64,000 nucleotides of DNA. Origin: Candidatus Parcubacteria bacterium (lineage in GTDB: Bacteria > Patescibacteriota > Minisyncoccia > Phycocordibacterales > JAKFXT01). The notes under the pieces were generated by a model. It was not told the DNA's origin and ran no database searches. It was given only the letters and a program-made list of their open reading frames with translations. Below are positions 7,518 to 37,629 of the stretch, piece by piece. A program made the translations under genes and the position numbers. Every line of letters begins with the position of its first letter. Within the stretch, counting starts at the first letter, position 1. Location of the stretch: NCBI GenBank assembly GCA_021414235.1, contig JAIOOV010000004.1, positions 254,456 to 318,455 on the forward strand. The letters run 5' to 3'.

Positions 7518-7533
7518 TATAGCTAAATACGCC

Positions 7534-10390: not shown

Positions 10391-10409
10391 GTGGTATCAT
10401 GAGCAGACT

Positions 10410-11262: not shown

Positions 11263-11291
11263 TTGACCTTTTCCCCGTATTCCGCTATAGT
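11263..11291 (+). promoter_or_regulatory. sigma70-like promoter for rpmG (TTGACC-17-TATAGT), giving a ~4-nt leader
   Basis: TTGACC, 17-nt spacer, TATAGT, then 10 nt to the ATG at 11302. Confidence 0.45.
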
Positions 11292-11301
11292 CCTGGTCAC
11301 C

Positions 11302-11490: not shown

Positions 11491-11523
11491 TTGGGGCGGG
11501 GGATGCTAGACTCGGTGGCGTAG

Positions 11524-12888: not shown

Positions 12889-12943
12889 ACTGAGCGGGGA
12901 AATGCTAGCATGAGGATATCTTACCCGCTAATACTGAAATACC

Positions 12944-13761: not shown

Positions 13762-13770
13762 TGCTAAAAT
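13762..13770 (+). promoter_or_regulatory. extended -10 promoter (TGcTAAAAT) positioned 6 nt before the parB ATG, implying a leaderless mRNA
   Basis: tgc TAAAAT gccccc ATG. Confidence 0.45.
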
Positions 13771-13776
13771 GCCCCC

Positions 13777-16285: not shown

Positions 16286-16340
16286 GTTATTTAATAGGAT
16301 ACTACGAAGCAGTTAAAATGCAACTTACGAGGGGGTAACT

Positions 16341-16523
16341 ATGGGCGAAGCGCTCGGTAGTGATCAAGGGGACCTTCGTGTTCTGTTACCGGTTCCTACG
16401 GCCGAACGGCGTCGCGAGCTAATTCTTCGCAAGCTCATCCCGGCTTGGAAGGAGGGGCTGGTTAGCGACGACGAGCTCGACTGGTTCTTGCTCACTGGTA
16501 CGGCCTCCTGGGTCGGCCGCTGA
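16341..16523 (+). CDS. hypothetical small protein (60 aa)
   Basis: GAGGGGG SD 5 nt upstream of the ATG; its stop overlaps the start of a second small Zn-ribbon ORF (TGATG). Confidence 0.25.
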   Translation: MGEALGSDQGDLRVLLPVPTAERRRELILRKLIPAWKEGLVSDDELDWFLLTGTASWVGR

Positions 16524-16679
16524 TGTTCCGCTGCACCAATTGCACCCGGCAACTTCATCGGGTGCCCGCCATATGTCCCTACTGCAGGACGTGGCAGGGA
16601 GGAGTTCCTATCCACATGTTCCTCCGCTCGGTACGCCGAGCGAAACGGCCGCCTTCTCGTGAAGGCGGCCGATCTGTTT

Positions 16680-18854
16680 TTATACCTTCTTCTTCTCTAT
16701 CTTATGCGGATTGTGGTTCGGGCACGCTTTGTTCGAACATCTCTCAGGGATTGTCTTGGTTCCCTCCATCATGAGTGAGCCGCAGAGTTCGCAGATCTTG
16801 CCGGTGGGCTTAGCTTTAATCGCGTTCTTACAGGTAGGGTAGTTAGAGCAGCTGTAGAAGATGCCGAAGCGGCCGCGACGCTCCACCATCTCGCCTTTGC
16901 CGCAGGTGGGGCAGGTGACGCCAGTTTTCTTACGTGCCTCCTCTTCCGGACTCTCCTTTATATATTTGCACTTCGGGTAGTTGCTGCAGGCGATGAAGCG
17001 GCCGTAGCGGCCATCGCGCTCCATGAGCTTGCCGTCAGCACAGTCCGGGCACTTCTCTCCGGTGAACTTGGGTCCTTCCATCTCCTTGCCGTCGATGGCG
17101 CGGGCGCCATCACAGTCGGGATAGGTGGAGCAGGAGAGGAACTTACCGTTCTTTCCGAGCTTGATGATCATTTCGCTCCCACACTTAGGGCAGGGGAACT
17201 CCTTGGGGCCGGGACCTAAGTCGGTGAGCTTGTCGATCTTGTCCTTGCTCTTCACGTCCTTGAGGAAGGGGCCGTAGAAATCCTTGAGTGTTTTTAGATA
17301 TGCGGCGTCGCCATTTGCGATGTCGTCGAGCTTGTTCTCCATCTCCGCAGTGAAATCATCCCCGATGTATTGTTCAAAGTTCTTCTCCAGGAAGGAGCTG
17401 ACCACGTCACCGGTGTCGGTGGGGAGGAGCGTCTTGCCGTTCTTCTCCACGTAGCCGCGGTCTTGGATGGTCTTGATGATAGAGGCGTAGGTAGACGGGC
17501 GTCCGATACCGCGCTTCTCCATCTCCTTTACGAGTCCTGCTTCCGTATAGCGGGAAGGCGGCTCTGTGCTCTTCTCCTCTGTAAAGAGGTTGAGGAGATC
17601 GAGTGATTCACCAGCTACCACCTTGGGCAGCTCTACGTCTTCTCCGCGCGCTTCCGGATCTGCCTTGAGCCAGCCATCGAAGAGTACGCGAGAGCCGTTC
17701 GCATGGAAGGCGGGGAAATCTTTCGCTTCCACGCCCGCGGCGATGCGCGTGCGCAGAGTGTTGGCATCCGCCATCTGGGACGAGACGACACGCTCCCAGA
17801 TGAGGTGGTAGAGCTTCTTGGCATCGTCCGTAGCCCCGGCAGATTCCCGCAGTACGTCGGTCACGCGCACGGCTTCGTGGGCTTCCTGCGCGTTCTTGCT
17901 CTTGGTCTTGTACTGGCGGGCTTCTGCATACTTGGCGCCGTACTTCTTGGTGACGAGAGCTATGATGGCAGCCTGGGCGTCTGCACCGATCGTCGTACTA
18001 TCAGTACGCATGTAGGTGATGAGTCCGGCTTCGTAGAGCTTCTGAGCTACGGACATGGTGCGGGAAGGGGAGAAGCCGAGACGAGAGCTCGCCGTCTGCT
18101 GGAGAGTAGAAGTAGTGAAAGGAGCACGAGGAGAGCGCTTGGCTTCGGTCTCGTCCACGGAGAGCACTTTCCAAGGTTTTCCTTTTGCCGTCTCTACTAT
18201 TTTCGCGGTCACCTTCTGATCGCGCGGCTCTTCTTCGCACACCACAGTAAAGGCTGCAGTGCTCTTACCTTTCACCTCTGCGGAGATGACGGAATACGCT
18301 TCCGGTACGAAAGCTCTGATCTCACGCTCGCGCTCCATCAGGATGCGCAGCGCCGGAGATTGCACGCGGCCGGCAGAGAGGCCGTAGCGTACCTTCTTCC
18401 AGATGAGGCCAGAGAGATCGTAGCCTACGAGACGATCCAGGACGCGGCGGGCTTCCTGAGCCTGCTTGAGCTTGTCATCTATATCGCGGGGATGCTTGAG
18501 GGCTTCCCTGATGGCTTTCTCGGTAATCTCGTGGAAAACGACGCGCTTAGGCTTCTTGAGCTTCACCGCCTCTGCGATGTGCCAGGCGATGGCTTCTCCT
18601 TCGCGGTCGGGGTCGGTCGCAAGGAGCACTTCGTCGGCTTTCTCCGCGAGTTCCTTGAGTTCCGCGATGACTCCTTCCTTGCCTTTGCTGATCTCGTAGT
18701 GGGGGATGAAGCCGCCTTCGATGTCGATGGCTTTCTTGTTGCTCTTCGGGAGATCGCGCACGTGTCCTACGCTCGCGCGCACGACATATTCGCTGCCGAG
18801 ATATTTCCCGATTGTCTTTGCTTTTGCTGGAGACTCGACAACAAGTAATTTCAT
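16680..18854 (-). CDS. topA: DNA topoisomerase I with C-terminal zinc-ribbon repeats
   Basis: TOPRIM N-terminus MKLLVVESPAKAKTIGKYLG, topo IA core, several C4 zinc ribbons at the C-terminus; 724 aa. Confidence 0.9.
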   Translation of the reverse strand: MKLLVVESPAKAKTIGKYLGSEYVVRASVGHVRDLPKSNKKAIDIEGGFIPHYEISKGKEGVIAELKELAEKADEVLLATDPDREGEAIAWHIAEAVKLKKPKRVVFHEITEKAIREALKHPRDIDDKLKQAQEARRVLDRLVGYDLSGLIWKKVRYGLSAGRVQSPALRILMEREREIRAFVPEAYSVISAEVKGKSTAAFTVVCEEEPRDQKVTAKIVETAKGKPWKVLSVDETEAKRSPRAPFTTSTLQQTASSRLGFSPSRTMSVAQKLYEAGLITYMRTDSTTIGADAQAAIIALVTKKYGAKYAEARQYKTKSKNAQEAHEAVRVTDVLRESAGATDDAKKLYHLIWERVVSSQMADANTLRTRIAAGVEAKDFPAFHANGSRVLFDGWLKADPEARGEDVELPKVVAGESLDLLNLFTEEKSTEPPSRYTEAGLVKEMEKRGIGRPSTYASIIKTIQDRGYVEKNGKTLLPTDTGDVVSSFLEKNFEQYIGDDFTAEMENKLDDIANGDAAYLKTLKDFYGPFLKDVKSKDKIDKLTDLGPGPKEFPCPKCGSEMIIKLGKNGKFLSCSTYPDCDGARAIDGKEMEGPKFTGEKCPDCADGKLMERDGRYGRFIACSNYPKCKYIKESPEEEARKKTGVTCPTCGKGEMVERRGRFGIFYSCSNYPTCKNAIKAKPTGKICELCGSLMMEGTKTIPERCSNKACPNHNPHKIEKKKV

Positions 18855-19769: not shown

Positions 19770-19871
19770 ATATATAGGTATATATGGTAGCACCCACTGG
19801 CTCTCGGCGGATAATCCTTTTTGCCCTTGTGCACGCCTGTCTGCTACACTAGTACCCACCGAGAAACCCAT

Positions 19872-21131
19872 ATGTTAGACATCAAATTCATCCTGGAAAC
19901 TAAAGACCTCATTGCGGATGCTGCCCGCCGCAAGCACCTCGATTTCGATGTGGAAGCCCTCATCGCCGTAGACGACCGTCGCAAGGCAGCCCTCCTCTCC
20001 ATCGAGGCGAAGCGAGCTGAGCAGAATGCGGCGTCCCTTAAGATAAGCACTGCTGCGCCTGAGGAGCGCGCTACGCTCATCGCCGAGATGACTACCCTCA
20101 AGGAGGCGCTCGGCAAAGAAGAGGAGGATCTCAAGGAGATCATGAAGGAATGGCAGGGGCTCATGGTGCGCGTACCGAATATCCCGGATATGTCCGTGCC
20201 GGAAGGGGATAGTGATGCGGACAACCAGGAGGTGAAGGTCTGGGGAGAGAAGCCGCAGTTCTCCTTTGCTCCCAAGAGCCATGTGGAACTCATGGAGAAG
20301 CATAAAATGGTGGATCTTGAGCGCGGCTCCAAGGTGGCGGGCTTCCGCGGTTACTTCCTCACGGGTGCAGGAGCGGAACTCAACTTCGCCCTCTGGAAGT
20401 TCATCATCGATTTCTGGAGCAAGAAGGGCTTCACCTTCATGATCGCGCCGTCTCTCGTTAAGCGTGAGTCCTTCATGGGTACCGGGTATCTCCCGCAGAG
20501 CGAGGAGGATTTGTATAAGACGCAGGACGGGGACTATCTCGCGGGTACCGCGGAGGTGGCCACCATGGGCTACTACATGGACGAAGTGGTGGATAAGGCA
20601 GAACTTCCGACCAAGTTCTTCGCCTTCTCTCCCTGCTTCCGCAGGGAAGCAGGGAGCCACGGCAAGGACACCAAGGGCATCATGCGCGTGCATGAGTTCT
20701 TCAAGTTCGAGCAGGTGGTGCTCTGCGAAGCGTCTCACGAGGAGTCTGTGCGTTGGCACGAAGAGCTCACCAAGAATTCCGAGGACTTCATCCAGGCGCT
20801 TGGTCTCCCGTACCATGTGGTGGTGAACTGTGGAGGAGACCTCGGCCTAGGTCAGGTGAAGAAGTATGACATCGAATGTTGGGTCCCCTCGGAAGGTAAA
20901 TACCGCGAGACGCACTCTTCTTCCTATTTCCATGATTTCCAGACGCGCCGTCTCAATATCCGCTACAAGGATGCAGAAGGTAAGACTCGTTTTCCGCACT
21001 CGCTCAACAACACTGCTGCCGCTACTCCGCGCCTCCTCATCTCTCTCATTGAAAACAATCAGCAGGAAGACGGTTCCATCAAGATACCGGAAGCCCTGCG
21101 CCCTTATTTTGGCCGTGACGTAATCTCCTAG
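19872..21131 (+). CDS. serS: serine--tRNA ligase
   Basis: N-terminal coiled-coil arm, class II aaRS motifs (FRRE, GSALAV-type core); the ATG at 19872 follows an upstream alternative-start extension in the ORF track. Confidence 0.9.
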   Translation: MLDIKFILETKDLIADAARRKHLDFDVEALIAVDDRRKAALLSIEAKRAEQNAASLKISTAAPEERATLIAEMTTLKEALGKEEEDLKEIMKEWQGLMVRVPNIPDMSVPEGDSDADNQEVKVWGEKPQFSFAPKSHVELMEKHKMVDLERGSKVAGFRGYFLTGAGAELNFALWKFIIDFWSKKGFTFMIAPSLVKRESFMGTGYLPQSEEDLYKTQDGDYLAGTAEVATMGYYMDEVVDKAELPTKFFAFSPCFRREAGSHGKDTKGIMRVHEFFKFEQVVLCEASHEESVRWHEELTKNSEDFIQALGLPYHVVVNCGGDLGLGQVKKYDIECWVPSEGKYRETHSSSYFHDFQTRRLNIRYKDAEGKTRFPHSLNNTAAATPRLLISLIENNQQEDGSIKIPEALRPYFGRDVIS

Positions 21132-24044: not shown

Positions 24045-24057
24045 CCCCCTATTTCTG

Positions 24058-24094
24058 GCCCAGCCGCTTCGCGCGGCTGGGCCCTTCTTTTTTG
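24058..24094 (+). terminator. intrinsic terminator between the PRTase and dnaX
   Basis: GGCC(C)AGCCGC-ttcgc-GCGGCTGGGCC followed by CTTCTTTTTTGG. Confidence 0.7.
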
Positions 24095-24107
24095 GTATAC
24101 TCTCTCC

Positions 24108-25151
24108 ATGTCCGACGAAGTCCTCTATCGCAAATACCGCCCCAAGGACTTCTCCGAAGTCCGCGGTCAGGATCATGTAGTGAAGCCGCTCCAAGCTGCC
24201 TCCGAGAACAATAAGGTAGCCCATGCCTATCTCTTCTCCGGCTCCCGCGGCACGGGTAAGACCAGCATCGCTCGTATATTTGCCCGCTCTCTCGGGGTTT
24301 CCCCTGAGGATTTCTATGAAATAGACGGTGCGTCGAACCGCGGTATCGATGAAGTGCGCGAGCTCCGCGAGGCCGTGCACACGCTGCCGTTCCGCTCTCC
24401 CTACAAGGTGTACCTCATCGACGAGGCGCACATGCTCACGCCGCAGGCCTGGAATGCGCTCCTTAAGACCCTGGAAGAACCGCCTGCGCATGTGATCTTC
24501 ATGTTCGCCACCACCGAGCTCGACAAGGTGCTAGAGACAGTCATCTCCCGTTGTCAGGTATTTACGCTGAAGAAGCCGCCCCTCTCTGTGCTCAAGGATA
24601 CGGTGCTTCATGTAGCCAAGGCGGAAGGCTTTACGCTCGAAGCTGCTTCTGCGGAACTGGTGGCGCTCATGGGTGATGGTTCTTTCCGCGATACGCTCGG
24701 GATATTGCAGAAGGTGATCGGGGCTTCGGGGGACAAGAGGATAAGCAAGGAGGAGGTGGAGATGGTTACAGGTGCTCCGCGTGGGAGCCTCTTAAACGAT
24801 GTGCTTCTTGGTATCGAGGAGGCGGATCTCGGCCGTGCGCTTGGAGCTATCCGTACTGCCGCGAGCCAGAACATTGATTTCTCCGTATTTACGAGGCTTC
24901 TCTTGGAGCGTATGCGTGCGCTCCTCTTCCTCCGCTTCGTGAAGTCTTCTGAAGAAGAGTTGCGCCAGACCTTCGGGGAAGAGGATTTTAAGGTGCTCTC
25001 GGAGCTAGCAGGGAAGAAGGGTTCTCGTATTACTTCGGCGACACTCTCTGAGTTCCTCTCCGCGAGTGCTCAAGTGGGCTATGTGGCCGTGCCTGAGCTA
25101 CCCTTACAGCTCGCGCTGATGAGGGTCATAGGGGAGGGGAAACAGGCGTAA
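24108..25151 (+). CDS. dnaX: DNA polymerase III subunit gamma/tau, short form
   Basis: YRPKDFSEVRGQDHVV, Walker A SGSRGTGKTS, DEAH box LIDEAHML; 347 aa. Confidence 0.8.
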   Translation: MSDEVLYRKYRPKDFSEVRGQDHVVKPLQAASENNKVAHAYLFSGSRGTGKTSIARIFARSLGVSPEDFYEIDGASNRGIDEVRELREAVHTLPFRSPYKVYLIDEAHMLTPQAWNALLKTLEEPPAHVIFMFATTELDKVLETVISRCQVFTLKKPPLSVLKDTVLHVAKAEGFTLEAASAELVALMGDGSFRDTLGILQKVIGASGDKRISKEEVEMVTGAPRGSLLNDVLLGIEEADLGRALGAIRTAASQNIDFSVFTRLLLERMRALLFLRFVKSSEEELRQTFGEEDFKVLSELAGKKGSRITSATLSEFLSASAQVGYVAVPELPLQLALMRVIGEGKQA

Positions 25152-25826: not shown

Positions 25827-25895
25827 GCATCTGTGGCGGCGTCGGTATGGAGGCCGGGATTCGTCCCGGCCTCTTTCCTTTTGTATACTTCGTGC

Positions 25896-26753
25896 ATGTC
25901 GATCGACAGTCTCTTTAAAGGCAAACTCGATCTTACGGGGTGGGAGCGTTACCGCGTCACTGAAGATTTTTCGTACGAAGGGGTTCCTATTCCTGGACTC
26001 CGTCAGGAAGCCTACCAGCGCCTGATTGACGGCGTGCTAGTGTCGATCGGTGTTTTCCATTACCGCGGCGTCCCTGCGTATATCGCATGGGGAGAGAAGG
26101 CCGCCTATCACTGCGGTTTCCACGCGCCTCTCTCGCCGGAGGCGATCGTGTTCGATACGCGCATCAGCTGCCCCGAAGTGAAGCCGATGAAGGATTTCCA
26201 GGGTCAGGTGACGGGGTTTGTACTCGATGGAAAAGAGACGTTTGGAAGCGGGTCGCTCGTTCCAGAGATCGTGAGTATGAAGGATATAAAGAGATTCCTT
26301 CCTCTTGTTCTCGCGCTCGCCCTTGTCACCGGATGGGCGACGGTCAGGAACTTCCCGCTCGGCGATTCCCATGCGTGGCACGGATGGATGATCGACTTTA
26401 TGGCGGGCTTCTTCCTCCTGTTCGGCGGGTTGAAGGTCGCGGATATCCGCGGCTTCGCCAGGGCGTACGGTAAGTACGATCTTATCGCCATGCGGTTCCC
26501 CGCATGGGGTTACCTCTATGCGCTGCTCGAGGTGGGGCTCGGGGTGCTTTACCTCACCAGGTCTTTCCTGGTCGCTGCGAACGTGGGGACCATCTTCCTT
26601 CTTGGTATCGCTTCTATCGGGGTGTATCGGAAATTACGTAAAAAGGACGATACGGCGTGCGCGTGCCTCGGCGCTTTCTTCTCTGTCCCTATTACCTGGC
26701 TCACTCTCGCTGAGAATATCCTGATGATCGGGATGGCGGTCGCGATGCTCTAG
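25896..26753 (+). CDS. two-domain membrane protein: N-terminal soluble domain plus C-terminal MauE/DoxX-like 4-TM domain with a CxC motif
   Basis: TATACT 6 nt upstream of the ATG; C-terminal TM domain with a conserved ACACLG Cys pair typical of MauE-like thiol-redox membrane proteins. Confidence 0.55.
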   Translation: MSIDSLFKGKLDLTGWERYRVTEDFSYEGVPIPGLRQEAYQRLIDGVLVSIGVFHYRGVPAYIAWGEKAAYHCGFHAPLSPEAIVFDTRISCPEVKPMKDFQGQVTGFVLDGKETFGSGSLVPEIVSMKDIKRFLPLVLALALVTGWATVRNFPLGDSHAWHGWMIDFMAGFFLLFGGLKVADIRGFARAYGKYDLIAMRFPAWGYLYALLEVGLGVLYLTRSFLVAANVGTIFLLGIASIGVYRKLRKKDDTACACLGAFFSVPITWLTLAENILMIGMAVAML

Positions 26754-26834
26754 CGTCCATGACTCCCTCCGAGCCAGAGGAGCCTCATTGAATTAACCAC
26801 AGGGGCATATCGATGCAGGCGGTATACTTGTTGT

Positions 26835-27302
26835 ATGAATAAAAAAGACTGGCTCGCGCTTGCGGGATTCGTGGCCCTCGCGCAGGGTGCGGGCATCCTC
26901 GGATCACTATTCACTGCGCCCTCAATCGGCACATGGTACGCCACTCTCGTGCGTCCGGAGCTCTCTCCACCCAACTGGGTATTCGCCCCGGTGTGGACGA
27001 CGCTCTTCCTCCTCATGGGTATCGCCGCGTTCCTGGTGTGGCGGCAGGGAAGGAAGGGGAGAGTGGCGCTCGGCATCTTCCTCCTCCAGCTCGTGCTCAA
27101 TACGCTCTGGTCCATACTCTTCTTCGGTCTACAGAGCCCGGGTGCTGCTCTCGTCGATATCGTCTTCCTCTGGTTGGCTATAGTGGCGACGATCATCGCT
27201 TTTGCGCGGGTCTCCACTCCTGCCGCCTGGCTCCTTGCACCCTACATCGCCTGGGTCTCCTTCGCTGCCTACCTCAACTACGCGATCTGGACGCTGAATT
27301 AG
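26835..27302 (+). CDS. tspO: TspO/MBR family tryptophan-rich sensory protein
   Basis: WYATLVRPELSPPNWVFAPVWTTLFLLMG and five TM helices; 155 aa. Confidence 0.85.
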   Translation: MNKKDWLALAGFVALAQGAGILGSLFTAPSIGTWYATLVRPELSPPNWVFAPVWTTLFLLMGIAAFLVWRQGRKGRVALGIFLLQLVLNTLWSILFFGLQSPGAALVDIVFLWLAIVATIIAFARVSTPAAWLLAPYIAWVSFAAYLNYAIWTLN

Positions 27303-27348
27303 ACTCTGGGCGTTCCTGCGGGGTTCCTCCTTGCGCTATACTACCGGC

Positions 27349-27819
27349 ATGAATACATCATCGCTTCTCGCTACGCTCCGTATCGCGATAGGGTGCTTCT
27401 TTTTCTATGCCGGTATCGTAAAAGTGATGAATCCCGCCTGGTCTGCCGCGGGGTTCTTGAATAACGCGAAGACATTTCCGGAATTCTATGCCTGGTTTGC
27501 ACAGCCCGGCATCCTCCCGTGGACGAACCTGCTGAACGAATGGAGTCTGACCCTGGTCGGGGTAGCGCTCATCCTTGGCATCGGCGTCCGCTTGGCCTCC
27601 TTCGGCGGCATCCTCCTTATGGCTCTCTACTACTTCCCGTCGCTCTCATTCCCGTACGCAGGGGATCACGCCTACATCGTAGACGAGCACGTCATCTATG
27701 CTCTGCTTCTCGCATATCTCGCGGCAATGAAGGCTGGACGAGTATGGGGACTCGAACGCTGGTGCGCGAACCTGTCGCTGTGCACCCGTTTCCCGAAACT
27801 GCGCGCATTGCTCGGATAA
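27349..27819 (+). CDS. DoxX-family membrane protein
   Basis: DoxX-like TM helices (FFYAGIVKV...); start chosen at the ATG preceded by TATACT-N6. Confidence 0.65.
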   Translation: MNTSSLLATLRIAIGCFFFYAGIVKVMNPAWSAAGFLNNAKTFPEFYAWFAQPGILPWTNLLNEWSLTLVGVALILGIGVRLASFGGILLMALYYFPSLSFPYAGDHAYIVDEHVIYALLLAYLAAMKAGRVWGLERWCANLSLCTRFPKLRALLG

Positions 27820-27822
27820 TTT

Positions 27823-29358
27823 TTAGCGGAAAGAAGCCAGATCCTTGGGATCCTGGAGGGCTGTCCACATACCTATATCCTGCGCTCCGCCGAGGCTGAA
27901 GACGGCGATACCTCGTACGCCGAGTTCGCGGGCGAGCGCTACCTTGTCGGCGATAGCTGTCGCATCACTCCAGGTGAGGTAGTTGAATGGCTTGGTGGTG
28001 TCTACTTGGGAGCCGAGGTTCTGGGCAACTGAAGTCGAGGGCGTGGTTTGTGCCTGCTGGAGCTCTGTAGAGTTGTCTCCGCTCGGAGCGATCGCGGCGA
28101 GCTTGGCCGGATCGTAAGTGAAGCCCATCTCGTTGGCGCTCGTTCTCATCGGAGTGATGCCGAGCTGAGCCGCTATCTGCTTCCCATAGTTGGGATTGAA
28201 GGCCCAGAGCCTCTTGTAGCTGAAGCCGCCGCTGAGGAGGGGAGTGACCTCGTATTCATAGCCATAGGTGGGCACGCCGATGATGATCTTGTCCTTGGCA
28301 ATACTTTGCGCGGCGAGCTGGACGAGCACGCCTACCCAGCCTGGATCGGCGACAGGAGCATAGGGAGCGGAGCGGGCGGCATTCAGGCGCTTGTCGATTG
28401 TGCCCTGATCGTAGGCCATGATCTCTACGCGGTCACAGTAGCGATTGAGCGCATTGTAGTCATTGGCATAGTCCATGGCATCCGGGGGAATGGTCTGCCC
28501 AGGGAGATAGCGGCTCTCAAGCGGCATGCGCGCCTCGATGGTGCAGTAGATGAGTTTCTCTCCCATGCGCATGTCGAGTCCTTTGAGGAAGGTGGAGAAA
28601 TAGTCGATGGTCTCGTGTTTCTTGGCCTCGAAATCGATGTCGATACCATCGAAGTTGTTGTCTTTCACTAGCGCAGCGATCTCGTCTTCGAGTGCGATGC
28701 GGGCTCTCTGGTTGCTCAGTACGTTGTGGATAGGTCCACCTTCGAGCCAGACGACGGTGGGTACTACTTTGACGCCCCGGGCCTTGGCGGCAGCGATGAG
28801 TCCGGTCCAGGGATCCTGTGAGAACTTGTCCTTGCCGAGGAGCTTGCCCGTATCGGACACCTTGTAGCCGAAGGGCATGATGGAAGAGAGCTTGCTGAGG
28901 TTAGGGATGACATCCTTGGTGCCGGAGGCAGCGCGCCAATCAGGAACCCAACCGGAGAACTCCAGAGGGCCAGTGTAGGGGCCAGTGAGAGATTTGCCAG
29001 TGAGGTTTCCAGGATTCTGGGTGCCATCCGCAGGTCCTTCTGCTACGCCGCCGAGTACTGCGCGGGTCTTGGGTCCGTAGACGCCATAGCCTGCTGTGCG
29101 TGAGCCTGCGCAGACTATTTTCTTTTCGCACTGGAACTTCTTGAGGGCGGCTTCCGTGAGGGCTCCGAAGTAGCTGGTGGCCTTACCTTGAGCCAGATAT
29201 CCTCCAGCGATGAGCTTATTCTGCATCGCGGTAACGTCGGCTCCGGAGTGGCCGAGCCAGAGGGAGCGTACGGCTGCTTCTGCGCTTATGGGCGCAAAAG
29301 CGAAGCTGGCGAGGATAAATAAAGAAACAGAGAATATGAATGAGCGTGTCATGTTCAT
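27823..29358 (-). CDS. secreted glycoside hydrolase family 18 protein with an N-terminal peptidoglycan-binding (PG_binding_1) domain
   Basis: Signal peptide; PGBD-like SLWLGHSGADVTAMQNKLIAGGYL...FGALTEAALKKFQ; GH18 catalytic motif DGIDIDFE. Confidence 0.75.
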   Translation of the reverse strand: MNMTRSFIFSVSLFILASFAFAPISAEAAVRSLWLGHSGADVTAMQNKLIAGGYLAQGKATSYFGALTEAALKKFQCEKKIVCAGSRTAGYGVYGPKTRAVLGGVAEGPADGTQNPGNLTGKSLTGPYTGPLEFSGWVPDWRAASGTKDVIPNLSKLSSIMPFGYKVSDTGKLLGKDKFSQDPWTGLIAAAKARGVKVVPTVVWLEGGPIHNVLSNQRARIALEDEIAALVKDNNFDGIDIDFEAKKHETIDYFSTFLKGLDMRMGEKLIYCTIEARMPLESRYLPGQTIPPDAMDYANDYNALNRYCDRVEIMAYDQGTIDKRLNAARSAPYAPVADPGWVGVLVQLAAQSIAKDKIIIGVPTYGYEYEVTPLLSGGFSYKRLWAFNPNYGKQIAAQLGITPMRTSANEMGFTYDPAKLAAIAPSGDNSTELQQAQTTPSTSVAQNLGSQVDTTKPFNYLTWSDATAIADKVALARELGVRGIAVFSLGGAQDIGMWTALQDPKDLASFR

Positions 29359-29432
29359 ATAATATCAGACGCATCGGGAGCCGCCTTCTGTCAGCTTCTT
29401 CTTTTGTTGGTGTGCGCGGGTATAATTAACCC

Positions 29433-30320
29433 ATGAGTACTCAAAAAATAACCCCGCATCTCTGGTTCGACAAAGAAGCCAAGGAGGCCACCGCCTTCTA
29501 CGCTACTCTCTTTCCGGATTCCAAGGTGAATAGCGTGAATACTATTACCGGTACTCCTTCGGGAGACTGTGACATCGTCTCCTTCACGCTCGCGGGAGAG
29601 GATTTCATGGCAATCAGTGCGGGTCCCTACTTCAAGCTCAATCCCTCCATCTCGCTCTTTGTCGTCTTCGACAACGAAGCAGATATCAAGGCAACCTGGG
29701 ACAAACTCATCGAAGGAGGCAAGGCACTCATGGCCTACGACACGTATCCGTGGGCCAAGAAGTACGGCTGGCTGCAGGATAAGTATGGACTCACCTGGCA
29801 GCTCTCCTGGAGCGAGAATCACCAGCTCTCCCAGAAGATCACGCCTCTCCTCATGTTCACCAAAGAGTTCGCCGGCAAGGCAGAGCAGGCGATTAAGACC
29901 TACACGGAACTCTTCCCGGATTCTAAGATAGAGATGTCTGTGCCCTACGCAGCGGGCGAAGGCGACAAGGAAGGCTACATCAAGCATGCCCGCTTCACGC
30001 TCTGTGGGCAGGGCTTCATGGCGATGGACAGCTCAGGTCCTCACGAGTTCGTCTTTAATGAAGCTTTCTCACTCATCGTGCACTGCGATACCCAGGAGGA
30101 GATCGATCGCTACTGGGTGGCGCTCTCCGCAGTGCCTGAGTCGGAGCAGTGTGGCTGGCTCAAGGATAAGTTCGGAGTGTCTTGGCAGATCGTCCCCACG
30201 GTCATGAACGAGATGCTCGCGAGCGGGGACACAGAGAAGGTGAAGCGGGTTACAGAGGCTTTCCTCAAGATGAAGAAGTTCGACATCGCGGAGCTTGAGC
30301 GTGCTGCGAAAGGAGAATAG
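29433..30320 (+). CDS. tandem VOC-superfamily protein (PhnB/3-demethylubiquinone-9 3-methyltransferase-like domains x2)
   Basis: Two repeats of an HLWFD...GWLKDKFG(V/L)SWQ(L/I)-type fold; TATAAT 6 nt upstream of the ATG. Confidence 0.65.
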   Translation: MSTQKITPHLWFDKEAKEATAFYATLFPDSKVNSVNTITGTPSGDCDIVSFTLAGEDFMAISAGPYFKLNPSISLFVVFDNEADIKATWDKLIEGGKALMAYDTYPWAKKYGWLQDKYGLTWQLSWSENHQLSQKITPLLMFTKEFAGKAEQAIKTYTELFPDSKIEMSVPYAAGEGDKEGYIKHARFTLCGQGFMAMDSSGPHEFVFNEAFSLIVHCDTQEEIDRYWVALSAVPESEQCGWLKDKFGVSWQIVPTVMNEMLASGDTEKVKRVTEAFLKMKKFDIAELERAAKGE

Positions 30321-30340
30321 TTAAATATATAAAATTAAAT

Positions 30341-30709
30341 ATGACCAAAGGAAAATACGTAGACGGATTCGTACTGGTGGTGCCGAAGAAGAACGTGGAG
30401 GCCTACAAGAAGATGGCCAAGGAAGGAGCGAGGGCGTGGATGAAGCACGGAGCGCTTGATTATAAAGAGTGCATGATGGACGACGCCACTCCTCCGAATG
30501 TCAGCCTCACGTTCCCTAAGATGACCAAGGCAAAAGAAGATGAGACCGTCTTCTTCTCCTATATCGTCTTCAATTCGAGGAAGCATCGCGACCAGGTGAA
30601 TGCCAAGGTGATGAAGGAAATGGAGACTAAATACGACAAAGACTTCAAGATGCCGTTCGATATGAAGCGTATGGCGTACGGTGGCTTTACGGTGGAAGTG
30701 AGCGCTTAG
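30341..30709 (+). CDS. DUF1428-family protein
   Basis: 122 aa; YVDGFVLVVPKKNVEAYKKMA...MAYGGF conserved DUF1428 pattern. Confidence 0.65.
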   Translation: MTKGKYVDGFVLVVPKKNVEAYKKMAKEGARAWMKHGALDYKECMMDDATPPNVSLTFPKMTKAKEDETVFFSYIVFNSRKHRDQVNAKVMKEMETKYDKDFKMPFDMKRMAYGGFTVEVSA

Positions 30710-30742
30710 CGTTACGGAGCGGGCGGTGTAGAGTACTGCAAC

Positions 30743-31999
30743 ATGCCTTCCGTTGAAACCAAATACGACCTGATTGTAGTGGGTGGCGGCGCCTCTGGCC
30801 TCATGGCTGCGGGGCGGGCGGCTGAGCGCGGCCTACGTGTTCTTCTGTTGGAGAAGAATCGCAAGGTAGGGGAGAAGCTGCGTATCTCCGGCGGCGGCCG
30901 TTGCAATATCACTAACGCGGAGCTTGATGAGCGTGTGCTTCTCAAGGCCTACGGCAAAGCCGAGCAATTTCTCTACTCGCTCTTCTCACAGTTCGGTGTA
31001 CAGGACACTTTTAATTTCTTCGAGTCCCGCGGGCTTCCGCTCGTAGTACAGGCGCGTAAGCGTGCGTTCCCTGCGACCGAGAAAGCAGAGGATGTGGTGC
31101 GACTGCTTCAGAAGTATGCGGGTGATGGGGGAGTCAGGGTTATGACAGCCTCACCTGTTACTCAGGTCTTGGGGGACAAGAAAGGTATCACCGGTATCGT
31201 CTGCGGTACGAATACCTATCAGGCGGACAACTATCTCTTCTCCACTGGCAGTGTCTCGCATCCGGAGACTGGCTCAACGGGAGATGGACTCTCCTGGCTC
31301 AAGGGACTCGGGCATACCGTGCTTCAACCGACGCCTACCATCGTGCCGCTTGCGGTGAAGGAGGCGTGGAGTAAGACGCTCGCGGGTGTCTCTCTTTCCT
31401 TCATGAAGATCACCTTTTTCGTGGAGGGTAAGAAAGCATTTTCTGAGACAGGTAAGATCCTGTTCACTCATTTCGGTCTCTCGGGTCCTTTGATATTGAA
31501 TAGCGCGAACAAGGTCGCCGATCTGATCCACGATGGACTAGTGACTGCGACCATTGACGCATATCCGCATACCGACCTGGGAGCGCTCGAGAAGAGCATC
31601 ATTTCGGTCTTTGATGCCAACAAGAACAAGACGTTCAAGAACATCATCTCTGAATTCGTGCCCAAGGGAACAGCAAAGGGGATACTGCTTCTCCTTGCGG
31701 AGCATATGGATATCACTACCAAGGTTCACTCGGTGAGCAAGGAGGATCGTAAGAAAGTCGTACGGCTACTCAAAGCTCTCCCGCTCACTATCGAAGGACT
31801 CATGGGATTCGATAGGGCGGTGATCGCGGATGGCGGTGTAGCGCTCGAGGAGATAGACATGCGCACTATGCGATCGAAGATTGTACCCAATCTTTTTGTG
31901 ACCGGTGACCTGCTTCACATCACCCGGCCTTCTGGTGGCTTCTCTCTCCAGCTCTGCTGGTCTACTGGTTATGTGGCAGGAAGTAGTGTCGGAATGTAG
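30743..31999 (+). CDS. HI0933-like FAD-dependent flavoprotein (BaiN / aminoacetone oxidase family)
   Basis: Rossmann motif DLIVVGGGASGLMAA; GGGRCNITN signature of the HI0933 family. Confidence 0.8.
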   Translation: MPSVETKYDLIVVGGGASGLMAAGRAAERGLRVLLLEKNRKVGEKLRISGGGRCNITNAELDERVLLKAYGKAEQFLYSLFSQFGVQDTFNFFESRGLPLVVQARKRAFPATEKAEDVVRLLQKYAGDGGVRVMTASPVTQVLGDKKGITGIVCGTNTYQADNYLFSTGSVSHPETGSTGDGLSWLKGLGHTVLQPTPTIVPLAVKEAWSKTLAGVSLSFMKITFFVEGKKAFSETGKILFTHFGLSGPLILNSANKVADLIHDGLVTATIDAYPHTDLGALEKSIISVFDANKNKTFKNIISEFVPKGTAKGILLLLAEHMDITTKVHSVSKEDRKKVVRLLKALPLTIEGLMGFDRAVIADGGVALEEIDMRTMRSKIVPNLFVTGDLLHITRPSGGFSLQLCWSTGYVAGSSVGM

Positions 32000-32003: not shown

Positions 32004-32513
32004 TTACTCTTTTGTATTCAAATTAGCTTCGAAGTAGACACTATCCACCCACTCGTCTCCGACCTGCATAGTGCGCTCCTTCCTACCAGTTTCTACAAAG
32101 CCATTCTTGGTGAGTAGACGGATGCTACGTTCATTGCGAGGATCTACGTCTGCCAAGACCTTGGGGATACCTCTCTCTGCTGCACGCTTCAGAATCGCTT
32201 GTACCGCTTCGCTCGCTATGCCCATGCCCCAGACGCTGGGGGAGAAGATGAACCCAATCTCCTGATTGTCCCAGAGGCCAGCTTTACCCACGACTCTGTT
32301 CTGGTAGAGGACGACGAAGTCGTCTCCACGTCCTTCTTCTGTGGTCTTGATCGTATTTCGTACGAATTTTTCTGTTTCCGCAATGCTCTGGTGGGGAGGG
32401 GTGGACCAGAAACGCATCGCTTCTTTGTCCGCGAAGATGGGATGGAGAAAGGCAGCGCCCTCTTCTTTGAAGTGACGTAGCGTCAGGCGAGCTGTGGTAA
32501 GAGTGTCTTCCAA
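32004..32513 (-). CDS. GNAT-family N-acetyltransferase (RimJ/RimL-like); probable TTG start
   Basis: LTTARLTLRHF N-terminal pattern and GNAT core motifs; 4-nt gap to the upstream C39-like gene. Confidence 0.7.
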   Translation of the reverse strand: MEDTLTTARLTLRHFKEEGAAFLHPIFADKEAMRFWSTPPHQSIAETEKFVRNTIKTTEEGRGDDFVVLYQNRVVGKAGLWDNQEIGFIFSPSVWGMGIASEAVQAILKRAAERGIPKVLADVDPRNERSIRLLTKNGFVETGRKERTMQVGDEWVDSVYFEANLNTKE

Positions 32514-32517
32514 GATC

Positions 32518-33645
32518 TTATTCTAGCGAAGCGAGAGCTTCTTTGGCTGCAGGCAGGTTCTTGTGATACAGAAGAGCCTTCTCGAACTCCGCGCGGGCTA
32601 GGTCAGACTTACCTTGCTTTTGGTAGCTTTTGCCTTTGAAGAGGTAGAGCTCGCTGTAGGCCCGGTTGCCGTCGTTCAATATATTGTCCGAGAGGGAGAA
32701 GACGCGAGCGTAGTTGCCGACATGATAGTAGGCCTCGATCGGTTCCATCTGGTACCACATGGTGCGGCGGGCGAGTTTGCTCTCGACTTTCTCATACTCC
32801 GCTACTGAGCGGGCGTAGTCGCCGAGGTAGTAGTAAGCGGTGGCGAGATTGAAGCGGGCCTTGGTGTCATTGGCATTCGTAGCGAGTTGGCTCTCGGCAA
32901 TCTTGATCGCCTTCTGCCAGGATGCTTTTGCATCTTTGCTCTCGCCGAGCGCGGCGTCTAAGCTCGCCTTATCCTTGGGATCAGCCATGACCACATACGC
33001 GTAGTTGAACGGTTTCCAAATCGCATTGAATTCGGCGTAGGTGTACGCCTTGTCCTTGCCTTGATATGAATCGTCCTGGATGATCACGCCACGTGCATCA
33101 TCGTAGCCGCGGATGACGCGATAGTGTGCGAAATCTTCGGTGGAATTGAGGAGGGTGCGGATGAGGACGGGATGGCCAGCAGCTAAGATTCTTTTGAGAG
33201 TATCGATATCGCCGCCGCCACGGTAATAGGCGACTAGGCCACGACGCTCTGCTTCCGCTGCGAGTTCGGGAGGAGGTGTGGACTTGTCGTCGTCGATACC
33301 CTGGAGATTGTTGTTGGGGCGGAGTACTGCTGCGAGCTTCTCCTGGCTGACATTTATATCGTAATAGGAGAGGGCGATGGAGAGACCTGCTGCGGCGCAG
33401 TTATTAAACGTCTGGAAGACATGGTAGCCGCTCGTAAGGAGTTTCTGCTTGGGAAGCGGGCCGCCAGAGGTTGCAGGCTTGCCGGATCCTGGCATCTCTG
33501 CGGCAGGAGTACCTCCGATGGTGAAGGTAGGCTCGGACCGGGCTCGCTCCTTGCCCTGGGCGAGGAAATAGAAAGCGCCACCGAAGCATAAGCTCAGGAA
33601 TACGCTGAGAGTGATAGCTATCTGTTTGAAGCTCATATCCTGCAT
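32518..33645 (-). CDS. peptidase C39-like domain protein with C-terminal TPR repeats, TM-anchored
   Basis: N-terminal TM helix; C39-like block NNCAAAGLSIALSYY...HYRVIRGYD; TPR repeats at the C-terminus; TAGTAT 6 nt upstream of the ATG on the minus strand. Confidence 0.6.
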   Translation of the reverse strand: MQDMSFKQIAITLSVFLSLCFGGAFYFLAQGKERARSEPTFTIGGTPAAEMPGSGKPATSGGPLPKQKLLTSGYHVFQTFNNCAAAGLSIALSYYDINVSQEKLAAVLRPNNNLQGIDDDKSTPPPELAAEAERRGLVAYYRGGGDIDTLKRILAAGHPVLIRTLLNSTEDFAHYRVIRGYDDARGVIIQDDSYQGKDKAYTYAEFNAIWKPFNYAYVVMADPKDKASLDAALGESKDAKASWQKAIKIAESQLATNANDTKARFNLATAYYYLGDYARSVAEYEKVESKLARRTMWYQMEPIEAYYHVGNYARVFSLSDNILNDGNRAYSELYLFKGKSYQKQGKSDLARAEFEKALLYHKNLPAAKEALASLE

Positions 33646-33729
33646 GCGCCTATACTACCTTTACCTAAGCGGGGACGTAAGTGGGTCAGATTTCTTTCCC
33701 TGGAGCGTCAAAATGCTAGACTAAATACT

Positions 33730-33948
33730 ATGAATACACAGACCATCTCTCTTGGGGTAATAGTGCTACTTGCTCTCGGTATCGTAGGCTACTTTGTCTA
33801 CAAGGATGGTGCTACCAAGGAGATCACTACGTTCGAGGAATGTGCGGCGGCGGGCTACCCCATTATGGAGTCATATCCAGAACAGTGTCGCACACCGGAT
33901 GGTAAGACCTTCGCGCGCTTCACGCAGCAGGTCATCCCGAGCCTATGA
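33730..33948 (+). CDS. small membrane-anchored protein with two Cys (72 aa)
   Basis: N-terminal TM helix, CxxxG...C pattern. Confidence 0.4.
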   Translation: MNTQTISLGVIVLLALGIVGYFVYKDGATKEITTFEECAAAGYPIMESYPEQCRTPDGKTFARFTQQVIPSL

Positions 33949-34350: not shown

Positions 34351-34373
34351 TTTCCTTTTGCTACAATTACGCC

Positions 34374-35465
34374 ATGATCGAATATCTCAAATCCCATCCA
34401 CGTGTGAGAGAGTGGCTCGCTCTCGCGGAGCGTTATGAGCGGCACATCGGCGTGGGGGCGCTCCTCTTCGGCTTTGTCTTCGACACGCTCACCCTGGGAC
34501 GCCCCGACCAGCTTTTTGGGAACGTTACCCTCACTGCATACTTGCTCATCTCCGCAGGCTGCATCCTTTATCTCACTCTGGCAGCTAGGCGGGGAGTAGA
34601 AGTGCCGCCTGTTCTGGCGCTTATCCTGCTCCAGTTCTGTTTCGGTAACCTGGCTGGCGGACTCCTGGTGCTTTACGGACAGAGCGGCACGTTCGAGGGA
34701 AGCCTGCTCTTCTTCATCGTCCTTGGCGCCTTCATCCTGGGGAATGAGATGTTGCGCCAGCGCTACGCGCGTCTCAATTTCAATATCTCTGCCTGGTTCT
34801 TCCTCTTGCTCGCGTACCTTGCTTTGGTGGTTCCCATTCTTGTTGGACGTCTCGGGACGCTGGTCTTCCTCCTCTCGGGTTTCTTGTCGGTAGCCCTTCT
34901 TGCGGGCCTTCTCTTCTTGCTCTACAAGCTCTCGCCCATGAGTTTTGAAGGCATGAAGCGCAAGCTAGCTGTTTACCTCGGTAGCGTCTTCGTGGCGTAC
35001 AACGCATTGTATTTCCTCAACATCATCCCGCCGGTCCCGCTCTCGCTCCAGGCGATCGGTATCTATCACTCGGTCACGCATACGGGAGGGGAGTACGTAG
35101 TCGAATATGAGAAGCCGCGCTGGTATGAATTCTTCCGCAGCACGCACCGCACCTATGGCTACGTTCCGGGGAAGCCGGCGTATTGCTTTAGCTCCGTGTT
35201 CGCGCCCTCCGGCCTCTCTACTCCTATCAGCCATCGCTGGGAGCGCTACGATGAAGTAGTCGGGAAATGGCAGACTGCGACCCTACTCTCCTTCTCCATC
35301 AGTGGCGGACGGAATAACGGGTATCGCGGCTACAGTCAGAAATATGGCTTAAGCCCTGGTAAGTGGCGCTGCTCCGTGGAGACGGCGCGCGGTGCGCTCA
35401 TCGGGCGTACGACCTTCACGGTGACGGAAGCGCCGCCTGAGAGGCTAACTACTGAGAGCATCTGA
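34374..35465 (+). CDS. hypothetical polytopic membrane protein with a C-terminal soluble beta-rich domain
   Basis: About 6 TM helices then ~150-aa C-terminal domain; TGcTACAAT 6 nt upstream of the ATG. Confidence 0.5.
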   Translation: MIEYLKSHPRVREWLALAERYERHIGVGALLFGFVFDTLTLGRPDQLFGNVTLTAYLLISAGCILYLTLAARRGVEVPPVLALILLQFCFGNLAGGLLVLYGQSGTFEGSLLFFIVLGAFILGNEMLRQRYARLNFNISAWFFLLLAYLALVVPILVGRLGTLVFLLSGFLSVALLAGLLFLLYKLSPMSFEGMKRKLAVYLGSVFVAYNALYFLNIIPPVPLSLQAIGIYHSVTHTGGEYVVEYEKPRWYEFFRSTHRTYGYVPGKPAYCFSSVFAPSGLSTPISHRWERYDEVVGKWQTATLLSFSISGGRNNGYRGYSQKYGLSPGKWRCSVETARGALIGRTTFTVTEAPPERLTTESI

Positions 35466-36660: not shown

Positions 36661-37413
36661 TTAAAGTCCGAGGCTCGCGAGAAAGGTCTTGAGCTCTTCG
36701 CCCTCAAGACGGCGGTAGCTTCCGGCGGGGGTGTTGCCGAGTTCCACGTTCATGATGCGGATGCGGGTGAGCGTCTCCACGTCGTTGCCGAGTGCCGCGC
36801 ACATGCGTCTGATCTGGTGCTTCTTGCCTTCGGTGAGGATGATTTTGAAAGTGCGTTCGTCTACGATTTCTACTTTGCACTCTTTGGTCGTGTAGTCTTC
36901 GATAAATACGCCGCGTTCCATGCGGGTCTTCCAGTTGTTGGCCAAGGTCTTGCGCACGGTGACTACGTACTCCTTGTCGTGCTCGTATTCTGGATTGAGC
37001 AGGCGGTCGGTGATGCGACCGTCGTTGGTGAGGATGAGGAGGCCACTCGAATCCTTGTCGAGGCGTCCTACAGGGAAGACGGAAGAGAGGGGGATGGAGC
37101 TCCTAATGTCCTTCTCGCCCTTCTGCGGGGAGTGGGTGATGATGCCGACCGGCTTGTGGTAGGCGAGGTAGATGTGCTCTTTGGGCTTCTTGTTATCCCT
37201 CACTTCCACAAGGTCGTCCTCTTCTACCTTGGCGCCGAGCACGGCGAGCTCGCCGTTTAAGTACACTTTCTTAGCTTCGATGAGGGCGTCCGCACCCGTG
37301 CGGGTGGCGTACCCCTTGTGGGCCAAGTATTTGTTGATGCGCATGGGGAAGAGGGGCTTCTCCAGAGCCTTGGGTGCCTCTCTGCGGGGGAATCGGGGGG
37401 CGCTTCCTTTCAT
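36661..37413 (-). CDS. pseudouridine synthase, RsuA/RluB family (S4 domain plus catalytic domain); true start may be the ATG at 37344 (MRINKYLA)
   Basis: S4 RNA-binding N-terminus RINKYLAHKGYATR; catalytic motif GRLDKDSSGLLILTNDG. Confidence 0.85.
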   Translation of the reverse strand: MKGSAPRFPRREAPKALEKPLFPMRINKYLAHKGYATRTGADALIEAKKVYLNGELAVLGAKVEEDDLVEVRDNKKPKEHIYLAYHKPVGIITHSPQKGEKDIRSSIPLSSVFPVGRLDKDSSGLLILTNDGRITDRLLNPEYEHDKEYVVTVRKTLANNWKTRMERGVFIEDYTTKECKVEIVDERTFKIILTEGKKHQIRRMCAALGNDVETLTRIRIMNVELGNTPAGSYRRLEGEELKTFLASLGL

Positions 37414-37434
37414 GCGGGGGAGTATAGCATAACG

Positions 37435-37463
37435 TTGACATTTAAGGCGATTTTTGGTACTAT
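37435..37463 (+). promoter_or_regulatory. strong sigma70-type promoter TTGACA-17-TGgTACTAT for the DEAD-box helicase, with a ~165-nt leader
   Basis: TTGACA, 17-nt spacer, extended -10 TGgTACTAT. Confidence 0.55.
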
Positions 37464-37629
37464 ACGGGAGTAAGCATATCTCATTTTTCGGCCTAGTTAA
37501 GGGACGGAAGGGCGCTCGCCCTCCAAGCGAAATGGTGAGATTCTCGTCACCTTACGTTTATTACAGACAGACGAGCTTCTCTCGAAGGGAAGGAAGAGCG
37601 GACATAACGGTCCGCTTGCAGCAGAGTTT

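Follow-up and report, generated by a model that had tools for sequence, protein, structure and literature searches.

The translation of leaderless messenger RNAs (mRNAs) without Shine-Dalgarno (SD) pairing is established behaviour in bacteria other than those considered here. Among the genome classes of GeneMarkS-2, 'group C' is characterized by a TANNNT Pribnow box located 6-8 nucleotides (nt) from the start in 25-50% of operons (PMC6028130), and it has been described in Actinobacteria, Deinococcus-Thermus and some Mollicutes (PMC6028130; bioRxiv 2022.07.25.500264). Here, we report a 64,000-nt stretch of DNA from a Candidatus Parcubacteria bacterium (assembly GCA_021414235.1, contig JAIOOV010000004.1, positions 254,456 to 318,455 of the forward strand; hereafter the window), in which a -10-like TANNNT hexamer ends close to 6 nt before the ATG of many genes. 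The hexamer likely acts as the promoter of mRNAs that would begin at, or very near, their own start codon.

As in group C genomes (Mycobacterium tuberculosis, Streptomyces, Corynebacterium, Deinococcus deserti and some Mycoplasma), the box in the window stands before the first genes of operons and affects a comparable share of transcription units (25-50% in group C), SD sequences precede others and AUG dominates as the start codon. Nevertheless, the two differ in several respects. The first is lineage, since the Patescibacteria/Paceibacteria lie outside the taxa named for group C. The second is the promoter itself, in which TGn is frequent and the -35 element weak. Moreover, SD sequences are not enriched in most relatives of the window organism, whereas Actinobacteria keep them for most leadered genes, and these relatives include genomes of low GC (31-48%), whereas the group C genomes that use genetic code 11 are mostly GC-rich. 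Archaeal group D (Haloferax, Sulfolobus, Halobacterium) also resembles the window in having a promoter element at a fixed distance and mRNAs that start at AUG for many genes. However, the archaeal element is a TATA box/B recognition element (BRE) about 26 nt upstream served by TBP/TFB, whereas here it is a bacterial -10 element at -12 to -7, with TGn, as would suit a sigma-70-type holoenzyme.

The Patescibacteria, or candidate phyla radiation (CPR), account for a large part of bacterial diversity, and their ribosomes are unusually small. To our knowledge, the way in which start codons are chosen in Parcubacteria without an anti-Shine-Dalgarno (anti-SD) sequence has so far not been explained. 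In this taxon, the anti-SD CCTCCT is detectable in only 48% of members, with bS21 frequently lost and bS1 short (Tsurumaki et al., 2022, RNA 28:1041; PMC9297842). That study gives no alternative initiation mechanism; the lack of SD enrichment in 80 related loci (below) agrees with it, although the window organism still has clear GGAGG-led genes. By its sequence, the window belongs to the Patescibacteria (CPR), class Paceibacteria/Parcubacteria, because the best matches of its ParB (56-68% identity) are Parcubacteria/Paceibacterota metagenome-assembled genomes (MAGs), namely those of Yonath-, Nomura-, Taylor- and Adlerbacteria and Paceibacterota. Its gene content is also typical of CPR, with a short dnaX product (347 amino acids, aa) and an IF-2 of 500 aa.

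Both strands of the window were scanned, and about 63 genes were counted, with 61 gene starts entering a motif-blind test. Genes were called with a home-made, crude codon-usage caller that was blind to the motif and took longest open reading frame (ORF) starts. Dinucleotide-preserving shuffles (n = 100) served as the null model for motif counts in the TANNNT-N6-ATG test, where N6 denotes 6 nt between the end of the hexamer and the start codon. The comparison set comprised 80 Paceibacteria loci, one per species (1.28 Mb in total, GC 31-57%), and a 50-kb stretch of E. coli was put through the same scripts as a control. We call a gene leaderless-type if TANNNT lies 5-8 nt upstream of its ATG.

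We propose that these sites are sigma-70-type housekeeping promoters, driven mainly by the -10 element, often of the form TGnTAnnnT and with little or no -35 element, in which 6 nt (sometimes 5-8) separate the hexamer from the ATG. Transcription would begin 7 nt past the hexamer, with RNA polymerase starting at the A within a Y-A-T start element, and the resulting mRNA would begin with AUG and possess neither a 5' untranslated region (UTR) nor an SD sequence. Ribosomes with initiator tRNA would then bind the 5'-terminal AUG directly. Taken as a whole, we consider this leaderless-promoter reading likely. An earlier note on this DNA had argued that leaderless transcripts are widespread, and the promoter features of the hexamer, its N6 spacing, the use of ATG and conservation all support that claim; the transcription start site (TSS) on the A of the ATG and the mode of ribosome recruitment are what we infer from them.

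The nine hexamer-spacer-ATG sites on which the earlier note rested were rechecked, and all were found again with the same coordinates, hexamers and spacings.

25881-25898, plus strand: MauE-like gene (285 aa); TATACT 25884-25889, N6, ATG 25896, directly after a terminator hairpin (25849-25874)
26820-26837, plus strand: tspO (155 aa); TATACT 26823-26828, N6, ATG 26835
27334-27351, plus strand: DoxX gene (156 aa); TATACT 27337-27342, N6, ATG 27349
13762-13779, plus strand: parB; extended -10 TGcTAAAAT (hexamer 13765-13770), N6, ATG 13777
29418-29435, plus strand: VOC/3-dmu-9_3-mt protein; TATAAT 29421-29426, N6, ATG 29433; half of an 80-bp divergent promoter pair
30327-30343, plus strand: DUF1428; TAAAAT 30330-30335, N5, ATG 30341
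33643-33660, minus strand: C39-peptidase/TPR gene; TAGTAT 33657-33652, N6, ATG 33645
34359-34376, plus strand: DUF2914 gene; TGcTACAAT (hexamer 34362-34367), N6, ATG 34374
59535-59552, plus strand: 204-aa protein with a signal-peptide-like N-terminus; TATACT 59538-59543, N6, ATG 59550

The MauE-like, tspO and DoxX genes follow one another, each with TATACT-N6-ATG. The gene names given previously were confirmed by Pfam, and the profile coordinates are compatible with the proposed ATGs: TspO residues 12-152 correspond to profile positions 1-144, DUF1428 residues 5-108 correspond to positions 1-102 and ParB_N begins at residue 11. Independent gene calls on the identical public contig (Logan SRR15633504_87471) give the same starts, including 25896 and 27349.

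At least ten sites can be added to these, with ATGs at 1932, 4815, 24108, 29352 (minus strand), 30743, 33730, 37413 (minus), 59230 (minus), 61188 (minus) and 59322. They are given here together with the HtrA-like gene, one of three genes for which near-leaderless versions of the motif had been reported.

24057-24110, plus strand: dnaX; terminator hairpin 24057-24083 and T-tract, then TGgTATACT (hexamer 24096-24101), N6, ATG 24108
29350-29367, minus strand: GH18/PG-binding gene; TGaTATTAT (hexamer 29364-29359), N6, second ATG 29352; other half of the divergent pair with 29433
30726-30745, plus strand: HI0933-like flavoprotein; TAGAGT 30729-30734, N8, ATG 30743
33714-33732, plus strand: 72-aa membrane protein; TGcTAGACT (hexamer 33717-33722), N7, ATG 33730; diverges from the C39-TPR promoter across 84 bp
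37411-37429, minus strand: RluA-type pseudouridine synthase; TGcTATACT (hexamer 37426-37421), N7, ATG 37413
59228-59245, minus strand: 115-aa protein; TATACT 59242-59237, N6, ATG 59230
1917-1934, plus strand: class-V aminotransferase; TAGAAT 1920-1925, N6, second ATG 1932
3163-3182, plus strand: Trypsin_2/HtrA-like gene; TGcTACTAT (hexamer 3166-3171), N8, ATG 3180
4800-4817, plus strand: 260-aa protein, function unassigned; TGgTAGTGT (hexamer 4803-4808), N6, ATG 4815
61186-61260, minus strand: DUF1360; terminator 61260-61234, then TTGCGA-16-GATAAT (hexamer 61200-61195), N6, ATG 61188
59307-59504, plus strand: candidate 60-aa ORF with one transmembrane helix; TAAGAT 59310-59315, N6, ATG 59322; missed by the gene caller, in a 319-bp gap between two leaderless-type genes

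After alternative starts had been checked, 19 of the approximately 63 genes are leaderless-type (one of them with GATAAT), or 20 with the candidate ORF at 59322, for which no Pfam family was matched. A site at 61276-61887 (minus strand; TATACT-N4-ATG) was placed among the rejected or ambiguous cases.

The TANNNT motif is loose, with 958 sites in the window, and it could be argued that AT-rich intergenic hexamers lie near ATGs by chance and that the true starts are elsewhere. The starts at 1932, 29352, 25896 and 27349 were indeed refined with the motif in view, and the total TGNTANNNT count in the window is no higher than in shuffles (51 versus 58), the placement alone being informative. Placement, however, is far from random. 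TANNNT-N6-ATG occurs 26 times in the window compared with 12.6±3.4 times after shuffling, and 0 of the 100 shuffles reach 26; this is the shuffled control which the earlier note had called for, applied at the scale of the window. The tighter TAHAMT-N6-ATG occurs nine times against 0.79±0.96, in every case at the start of a predicted gene. The same picture emerges when no gene calls are used: the 62 tight -10 hexamers of the window are followed by ATG at N6 in nine cases and in about one case at each other spacing, and no spacing peak was seen in the window for GTG, TTG or CTG. For the motif-blind longest-ORF starts, TANNNT stands at N6 in 10 of 61, compared with 17 of 1752 other ATGs (Fisher p = 5e-9). 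The 50-kb E. coli control has no N6 peak, though its SD enrichment is clear. Chance is thus rejected by the shuffles, the spacing profile and the Fisher tests, with the tight N6 motif found only at gene starts. The starts themselves are fixed by where the Pfam profiles end, by an independent gene caller and by the conservation of N-termini (ParB MSQ.Y), and the N6/N7 peak recurs in orthologues at GC 31-57%, whereas E. coli is flat. We therefore regard coincidence combined with mis-called starts as largely refuted and extremely improbable.

The hexamer also has the properties of a promoter. The extended -10 element (TGn, with its TG at -15/-14) precedes 8 of the 19 sites but only 5% of all TANNNT hexamers in the window (p = 3e-6). 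The spacer between hexamer and ATG has 55% GC, which is the genome average, and AT-richness is limited to the hexamer. Intrinsic terminators with 11-12-bp stems and T-tracts end 2-12 nt before the hexamer at dnaX (24057-24083), the MauE-like gene (25849-25874) and DUF1360 (61260-61234, minus strand); since they abut the box, a new transcript must begin within the remaining ~14 nt or less. The divergent pairs 29352/29433 and 33645/33730, 80-84 bp apart, carry a box on both sides and therefore have no space for leaders. Furthermore, all four tRNA genes (10272, 11523, 13710 on the minus strand and 25182) have a TANNNT hexamer 10-16 nt before the mature 5' end. These elements, which precede tRNA-Trp, -Tyr, -Leu and -Gln, read TGcTAGACT (tRNA-Trp), TGcTAGGCT, TAGACT and TAATTT, are of the same kind as those before the leaderless-type genes and would imply very short 5' leaders for removal by RNase P. 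One of them is located as follows.

11504-11523, plus strand: tRNA-Trp promoter; TGcTAGACT 10 nt upstream

These features bear on a different explanation, in which the hexamer is an AT-rich, non-SD signal for ribosome binding or mRNA unfolding on a longer leader, similar to that of Bacteroidota 'group B', with transcription arriving from further upstream. Such a signal would suit the scarcity of SD sequences in relatives, where TAAT and TAAA are the words most enriched just upstream of genes that are not leaderless-type. In addition, several sites lie only 20-80 nt after a gene on the same strand, so read-through would be possible. Nevertheless, the invariant T1, A2 and T6 of a -10 box, the TGn enrichment and the genome-average GC of the 6-nt spacer are at odds with it, as are the strong terminators that separate the upstream gene from the hexamer at three sites and the hexamers before all four tRNA genes, which are not translated. 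A group B signal would be expected ahead of all genes, including operon-internal ones, on leadered mRNAs, whereas in the window the hexamer was not found at internal genes of operons that are tightly coupled, for example 35468, 21136 and 326 (minus strand). We consider a translation signal of this type very unlikely; every sequence-level test that was run favours the promoter, and the conclusion that the hexamer acts as a promoter element and not as a translation signal is supported.

The position at which transcription would begin can be approached from the bases around the ATG. A pyrimidine occupies position -1 at 18 of the 19 leaderless-type sites, compared with 29 of 42 other genes, and in the relatives the share is 76% for N6 sites that precede long ORFs and 39% for those with no ORF. 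Together with the A and T of the ATG, this pyrimidine forms a Y-R-Y start element centred 7 nt after the -10. In E. coli, a YRY element centred 7 bp after the -10 sets the TSS in ~93% of library variants (Kuo et al., 2025, NAR; PMC12641261). The window has C/T-A-T at this position, with its A being the A of the ATG; in contrast to the element of Kuo et al., it overlaps the start codon, so that one triplet would set the starts of both transcription and translation.

Some genes deviate from this spacing. The near-leaderless arrangement described earlier for the HtrA-like gene (3180, N8), rpmG (11302, TATAGT-N10) and hisS (58280, TGcTACTAT-N11) was borne out, and six genes without an SD have the box 9-15 nt upstream (N9-15), with predicted leaders of ~2-9 nt.

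11263-11304, plus strand: rpmG; TTGACC-17-TATAGT (hexamer 11286-11291), N10, ATG 11302
58278-58300, minus strand: hisS; TGcTACTAT (hexamer 58297-58292), N11, ATG 58280
10365-10412, plus strand: gene 10410; hairpin and T-tract after tRNA-Tyr, then TGgTATCAT (hexamer 10395-10400), N9, ATG 10410
7491-7536, plus strand: clpB; perfect TTGACA-16-TATAAT (7491-7518), N15, ATG 7534; predicted leader of 8-9 nt, no SD
ATG 12888, minus strand: miaA; box at N13
ATG 16285, minus strand: relA/spoT; box at N13

At hisS, the -10 box is preceded by an SD-like GGAGGAGG run, which would therefore stay untranscribed. An alternative relA start at 16258 (minus strand) was contradicted by the N-termini of orthologues.

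The continuum of spacings from N5 to N15 (rpmG N10, hisS N11, clpB N15) would be compatible with real promoters whose start distance is specific to the lineage, such that leaders are 2-6 nt long or transcription starts inside the ATG. Leaders of up to 5 nt are counted functionally as leaderless in TSS studies, and this explanation is functionally nearly equivalent to the leaderless one. It also draws on N. lyticus, the sole CPR species with inferred TSSs, in which the -10-to-TSS distance is unusually variable, as judged by indirect RNA-seq mapping (PMC12641261). However, the sharp maximum at N6, followed by N7, and the pyrimidine at -1 followed by A at +1 and T at +2 suit a start on the A, and we consider a shifted start unlikely.

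Two further promoter regions adjoin this group. The start codons of dprA (minus strand) and serS (plus strand) stand back to back at 19842-19874 (CAT|ATG), with each promoter inside the other gene; the serS box of the window, TGcTACACT (19842-19850), is 21 nt upstream, as opposed to N6/N7 in 76% of serS orthologues. The 55-bp divergent region between miaA (minus) and an AhpC-like gene (plus) at 12889-12943 contains the palindrome ATGCTAGCAT (12902-12911), in which an extended -10 (TGcTAGCAT) can be read on both strands.

Initiation with an SD sequence coexists with this arrangement in the window. About 11 genes are SD-led: 22327 (minus strand), 23385, 25419, 61947, 62721, 63133, 42632 (minus), 39700 (minus), 33964, 6135 and the small ORF 16341. 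They include all those to which strong SD sequences had been attributed before, namely 25419 (GGAGG), 61947 (GGGAGG-GTG), 62721 (AAGGAGG-GTG), 63133 (AAGAGGA) and 33964 (GGAAGGA). The promoters of SD-led genes lie ~30-50 nt upstream, that of 63133 at 63046-63074. Gene 61947 illustrates the contrast with the leaderless-type genes.

61881-61949, plus strand: leadered SD gene 61947; TTGACA-17-TGcTATAAT (61881-61909), ~31-nt leader with GGGAGG, GTG 61947

The earlier proposal that two initiation modes exist side by side is thus supported in the window by SD-led genes with a canonical promoter upstream. Start-codon usage differs between them, with ATG in 19 of 19 leaderless-type genes and in 7 of 11 SD-led genes (p = 0.012), the remaining four using GTG or TTG. 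An SD-like word was found in one of the 19 leaderless-type genes (59550), where GAGGT overlaps the flank of the -10. The suggestion that SD use goes with membrane or secreted proteins did not hold, as hydrophobic N-termini are just as common among leaderless-type genes (9 of 20) as among SD-led ones (5 of 11). By share of the window's genes, ~30% are leaderless-type, ~10% have predicted leaders of 3-9 nt, which could not accommodate an SD, and ~17% are leadered with an SD, with the rest mostly operon-internal and separated by tiny gaps. No 16S 3' end, from which the anti-SD could be read, is present in the window or in the fetched loci; the organism probably keeps its anti-SD, because clear GGAGG-led genes are present. 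The gene for IF-2 itself (328-1905, minus strand; 500 aa, without the N-terminal region) has a canonical promoter (TTTGCA-17-TATAAT) and a C-rich leader of ~45 nt with no SD.

The arrangement recurs in the 80 Paceibacteria loci. For the spacing from tight -10 hexamers to ATG, counts rise from a background of ~105 to 234 at N6 and 165 at N7, with no peak for other codons. For parB, TANNNT lies at N6 (42) or N7 (18) in 60 of 79 species, mostly as TRTGnTAAAAT, and the ParB N-terminus MSQ.Y is conserved from residue 1 in most species. Sharp N6/N7 peaks were also observed for orthologues of relA/spoT (51/58), dnaX (22/26), the HtrA-like gene (20/24) and serS (38/50), such that the five sets including parB have N6/N7 frequencies of 76-88%. 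Over 885 ORFs of at least 150 aa, TANNNT was counted at N6 in 189 and at N7 in 84, compared with ~35 at other spacings, which is an excess of ~25% of genes; ATG is the start codon at 252 of these 273 N6/N7 sites. If the start may lie anywhere in the first 30 codons, the signature is found in 407 of the 885 genes, compared with 24 at internal control positions (excess ~43%). The signature would thus be present in very roughly 25-45% of the relatives' genes, an estimate that is rough because the chance background of TANNNT is high in AT-rich relatives. SD words are not enriched in these ORFs (90 genes versus 94 controls), and the words most enriched upstream of the remaining genes are -10-like fragments (the AT-rich 4-mers TAAT and TAAA) rather than purine runs. 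The 20 nt that precede starts are poor in G and dominated by -10-like words. A test of GGAG to start-codon spacing without gene calls was abandoned as codon periodicity in genes swamps the signal, and gene-anchored tests were used instead.

Several observations weigh against the leaderless-promoter reading. The -10-to-TSS distance is assumed from the E. coli rule. Some starts were picked with the motif already known, although the unbiased longest-ORF test is still significant, and the background of chance TANNNT in AT-rich relatives, mentioned above, applies here too. The full E. coli-type -35/-10 consensus is not enriched (5 versus 8.3 expected in 20-40 kb); the promoter rules of this lineage are therefore known only in part, and the -35 is no general feature. 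Scans for the full consensus are informative for single promoters only (clpB, rpmG, 61947, 63133 and 37435). Homologues of tspO (52-73% identity) are widespread in mixed metagenomes, on contigs of varied GC, but only 13 of 74 have the box at N6, a weak peak. These tspO-centred loci come from mixed taxa and are without MauE and DoxX neighbours; they are of no help in judging the MauE-like, tspO and DoxX genes of the window, and they suggest that tspO moves between lineages and takes on the local type of promoter. Lastly, a GNAT acetyltransferase (32004-32528, minus strand) requires TTG 32513 as its start (profile 1-138 at 93 bits, versus 72 bits for the ATG call); its TAGAAT-N6-TTG overlaps the C39-TPR gene upstream at the stop codon of that gene. 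This candidate is a better fit to translational coupling, which is probably more likely here than a rare non-AUG leaderless start.

Other features of the window were recorded along the way. A giant ORF of 3780 aa at 42943-54285 (plus strand) has Flg_new_2/InlB B-repeat, PKD and BiPBP_C domains and a C-terminal PG_binding_1; its GC by codon position is unusual (0.49/0.59/0.62), very long ORFs run antisense to it, and a bidirectional terminator with a 19-bp stem follows at 54289-54329. Its product is probably a CPR giant surface protein. At 37435-37632 (plus strand), a consensus-like extended promoter, TTGACA-17-(TGg)TACTAT, precedes the ATG of a DEAD-box helicase (37630) by ~160 nt. No Rfam family matches this leader, whose predicted folding is moderately better than that of shuffled sequences (z = -2.2); it might represent either a regulatory 5' UTR or a small RNA that is not annotated. 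The minus-strand genes relA/spoT and topA are separated by 394 nt, and in this gap lies a plus-strand unit without annotation (16286-16774), with a promoter (TTAATA-17-TAAAAT, 16291-16319), a GAGGGGG SD, a 60-aa ORF (16341-16523), an overlapping CxxC...CxxC ORF (16523-16774) and a strong hairpin (16646-16671); no Pfam family was found for either ORF. Finally, the protein encoded at 58501-58830 (plus strand), adjoining hisS, is 109 aa long and has an RNA-recognition motif (RRM_1) of eukaryote type.

The mechanism proposed here is of a known kind, and what seems to be new is its lineage, the Patescibacteria/Paceibacteria. Searches for leaderless or Shine-Dalgarno initiation in CPR (Patescibacteria, Parcubacteria, Saccharibacteria and others) found no report of leaderless transcripts, with the subscription literature poorly covered, so that this is absence of evidence only; a preprint on the TM7x transcriptome mentions neither promoters nor UTRs. 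Were the arrangement limited to this one genome, it would be an ordinary example of a known phenomenon. The wider claim is that leaderless or near-leaderless initiation is the main recognisable translation-start mechanism of the class Paceibacteria, used by a quarter to nearly half of the genes, and that it has largely replaced the SD, which would explain how about half of Parcubacteria could do without the anti-SD, as well as the loss of bS21 and the shortening of bS1. On the sequence comparisons made here, we judge the chances of this wider claim to be even.

The finding has practical consequences for CPR genomes. Longest-ORF calls mis-start the MauE-like gene, DoxX, hisS, rpmG and others in the window, and a promoter-at-minus-10 model should be adopted when gene starts are called in CPR MAGs. 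For those few CPR that can be cultivated, expression cassettes could consist of a -10 box, N6 and ATG. If the leaderless architecture is true of the whole class, it would explain how start codons are selected in Parcubacteria that have no anti-SD, and it would bring a deep-branching bacterial lineage into the discussion of a possible ancestral origin of leaderless initiation.

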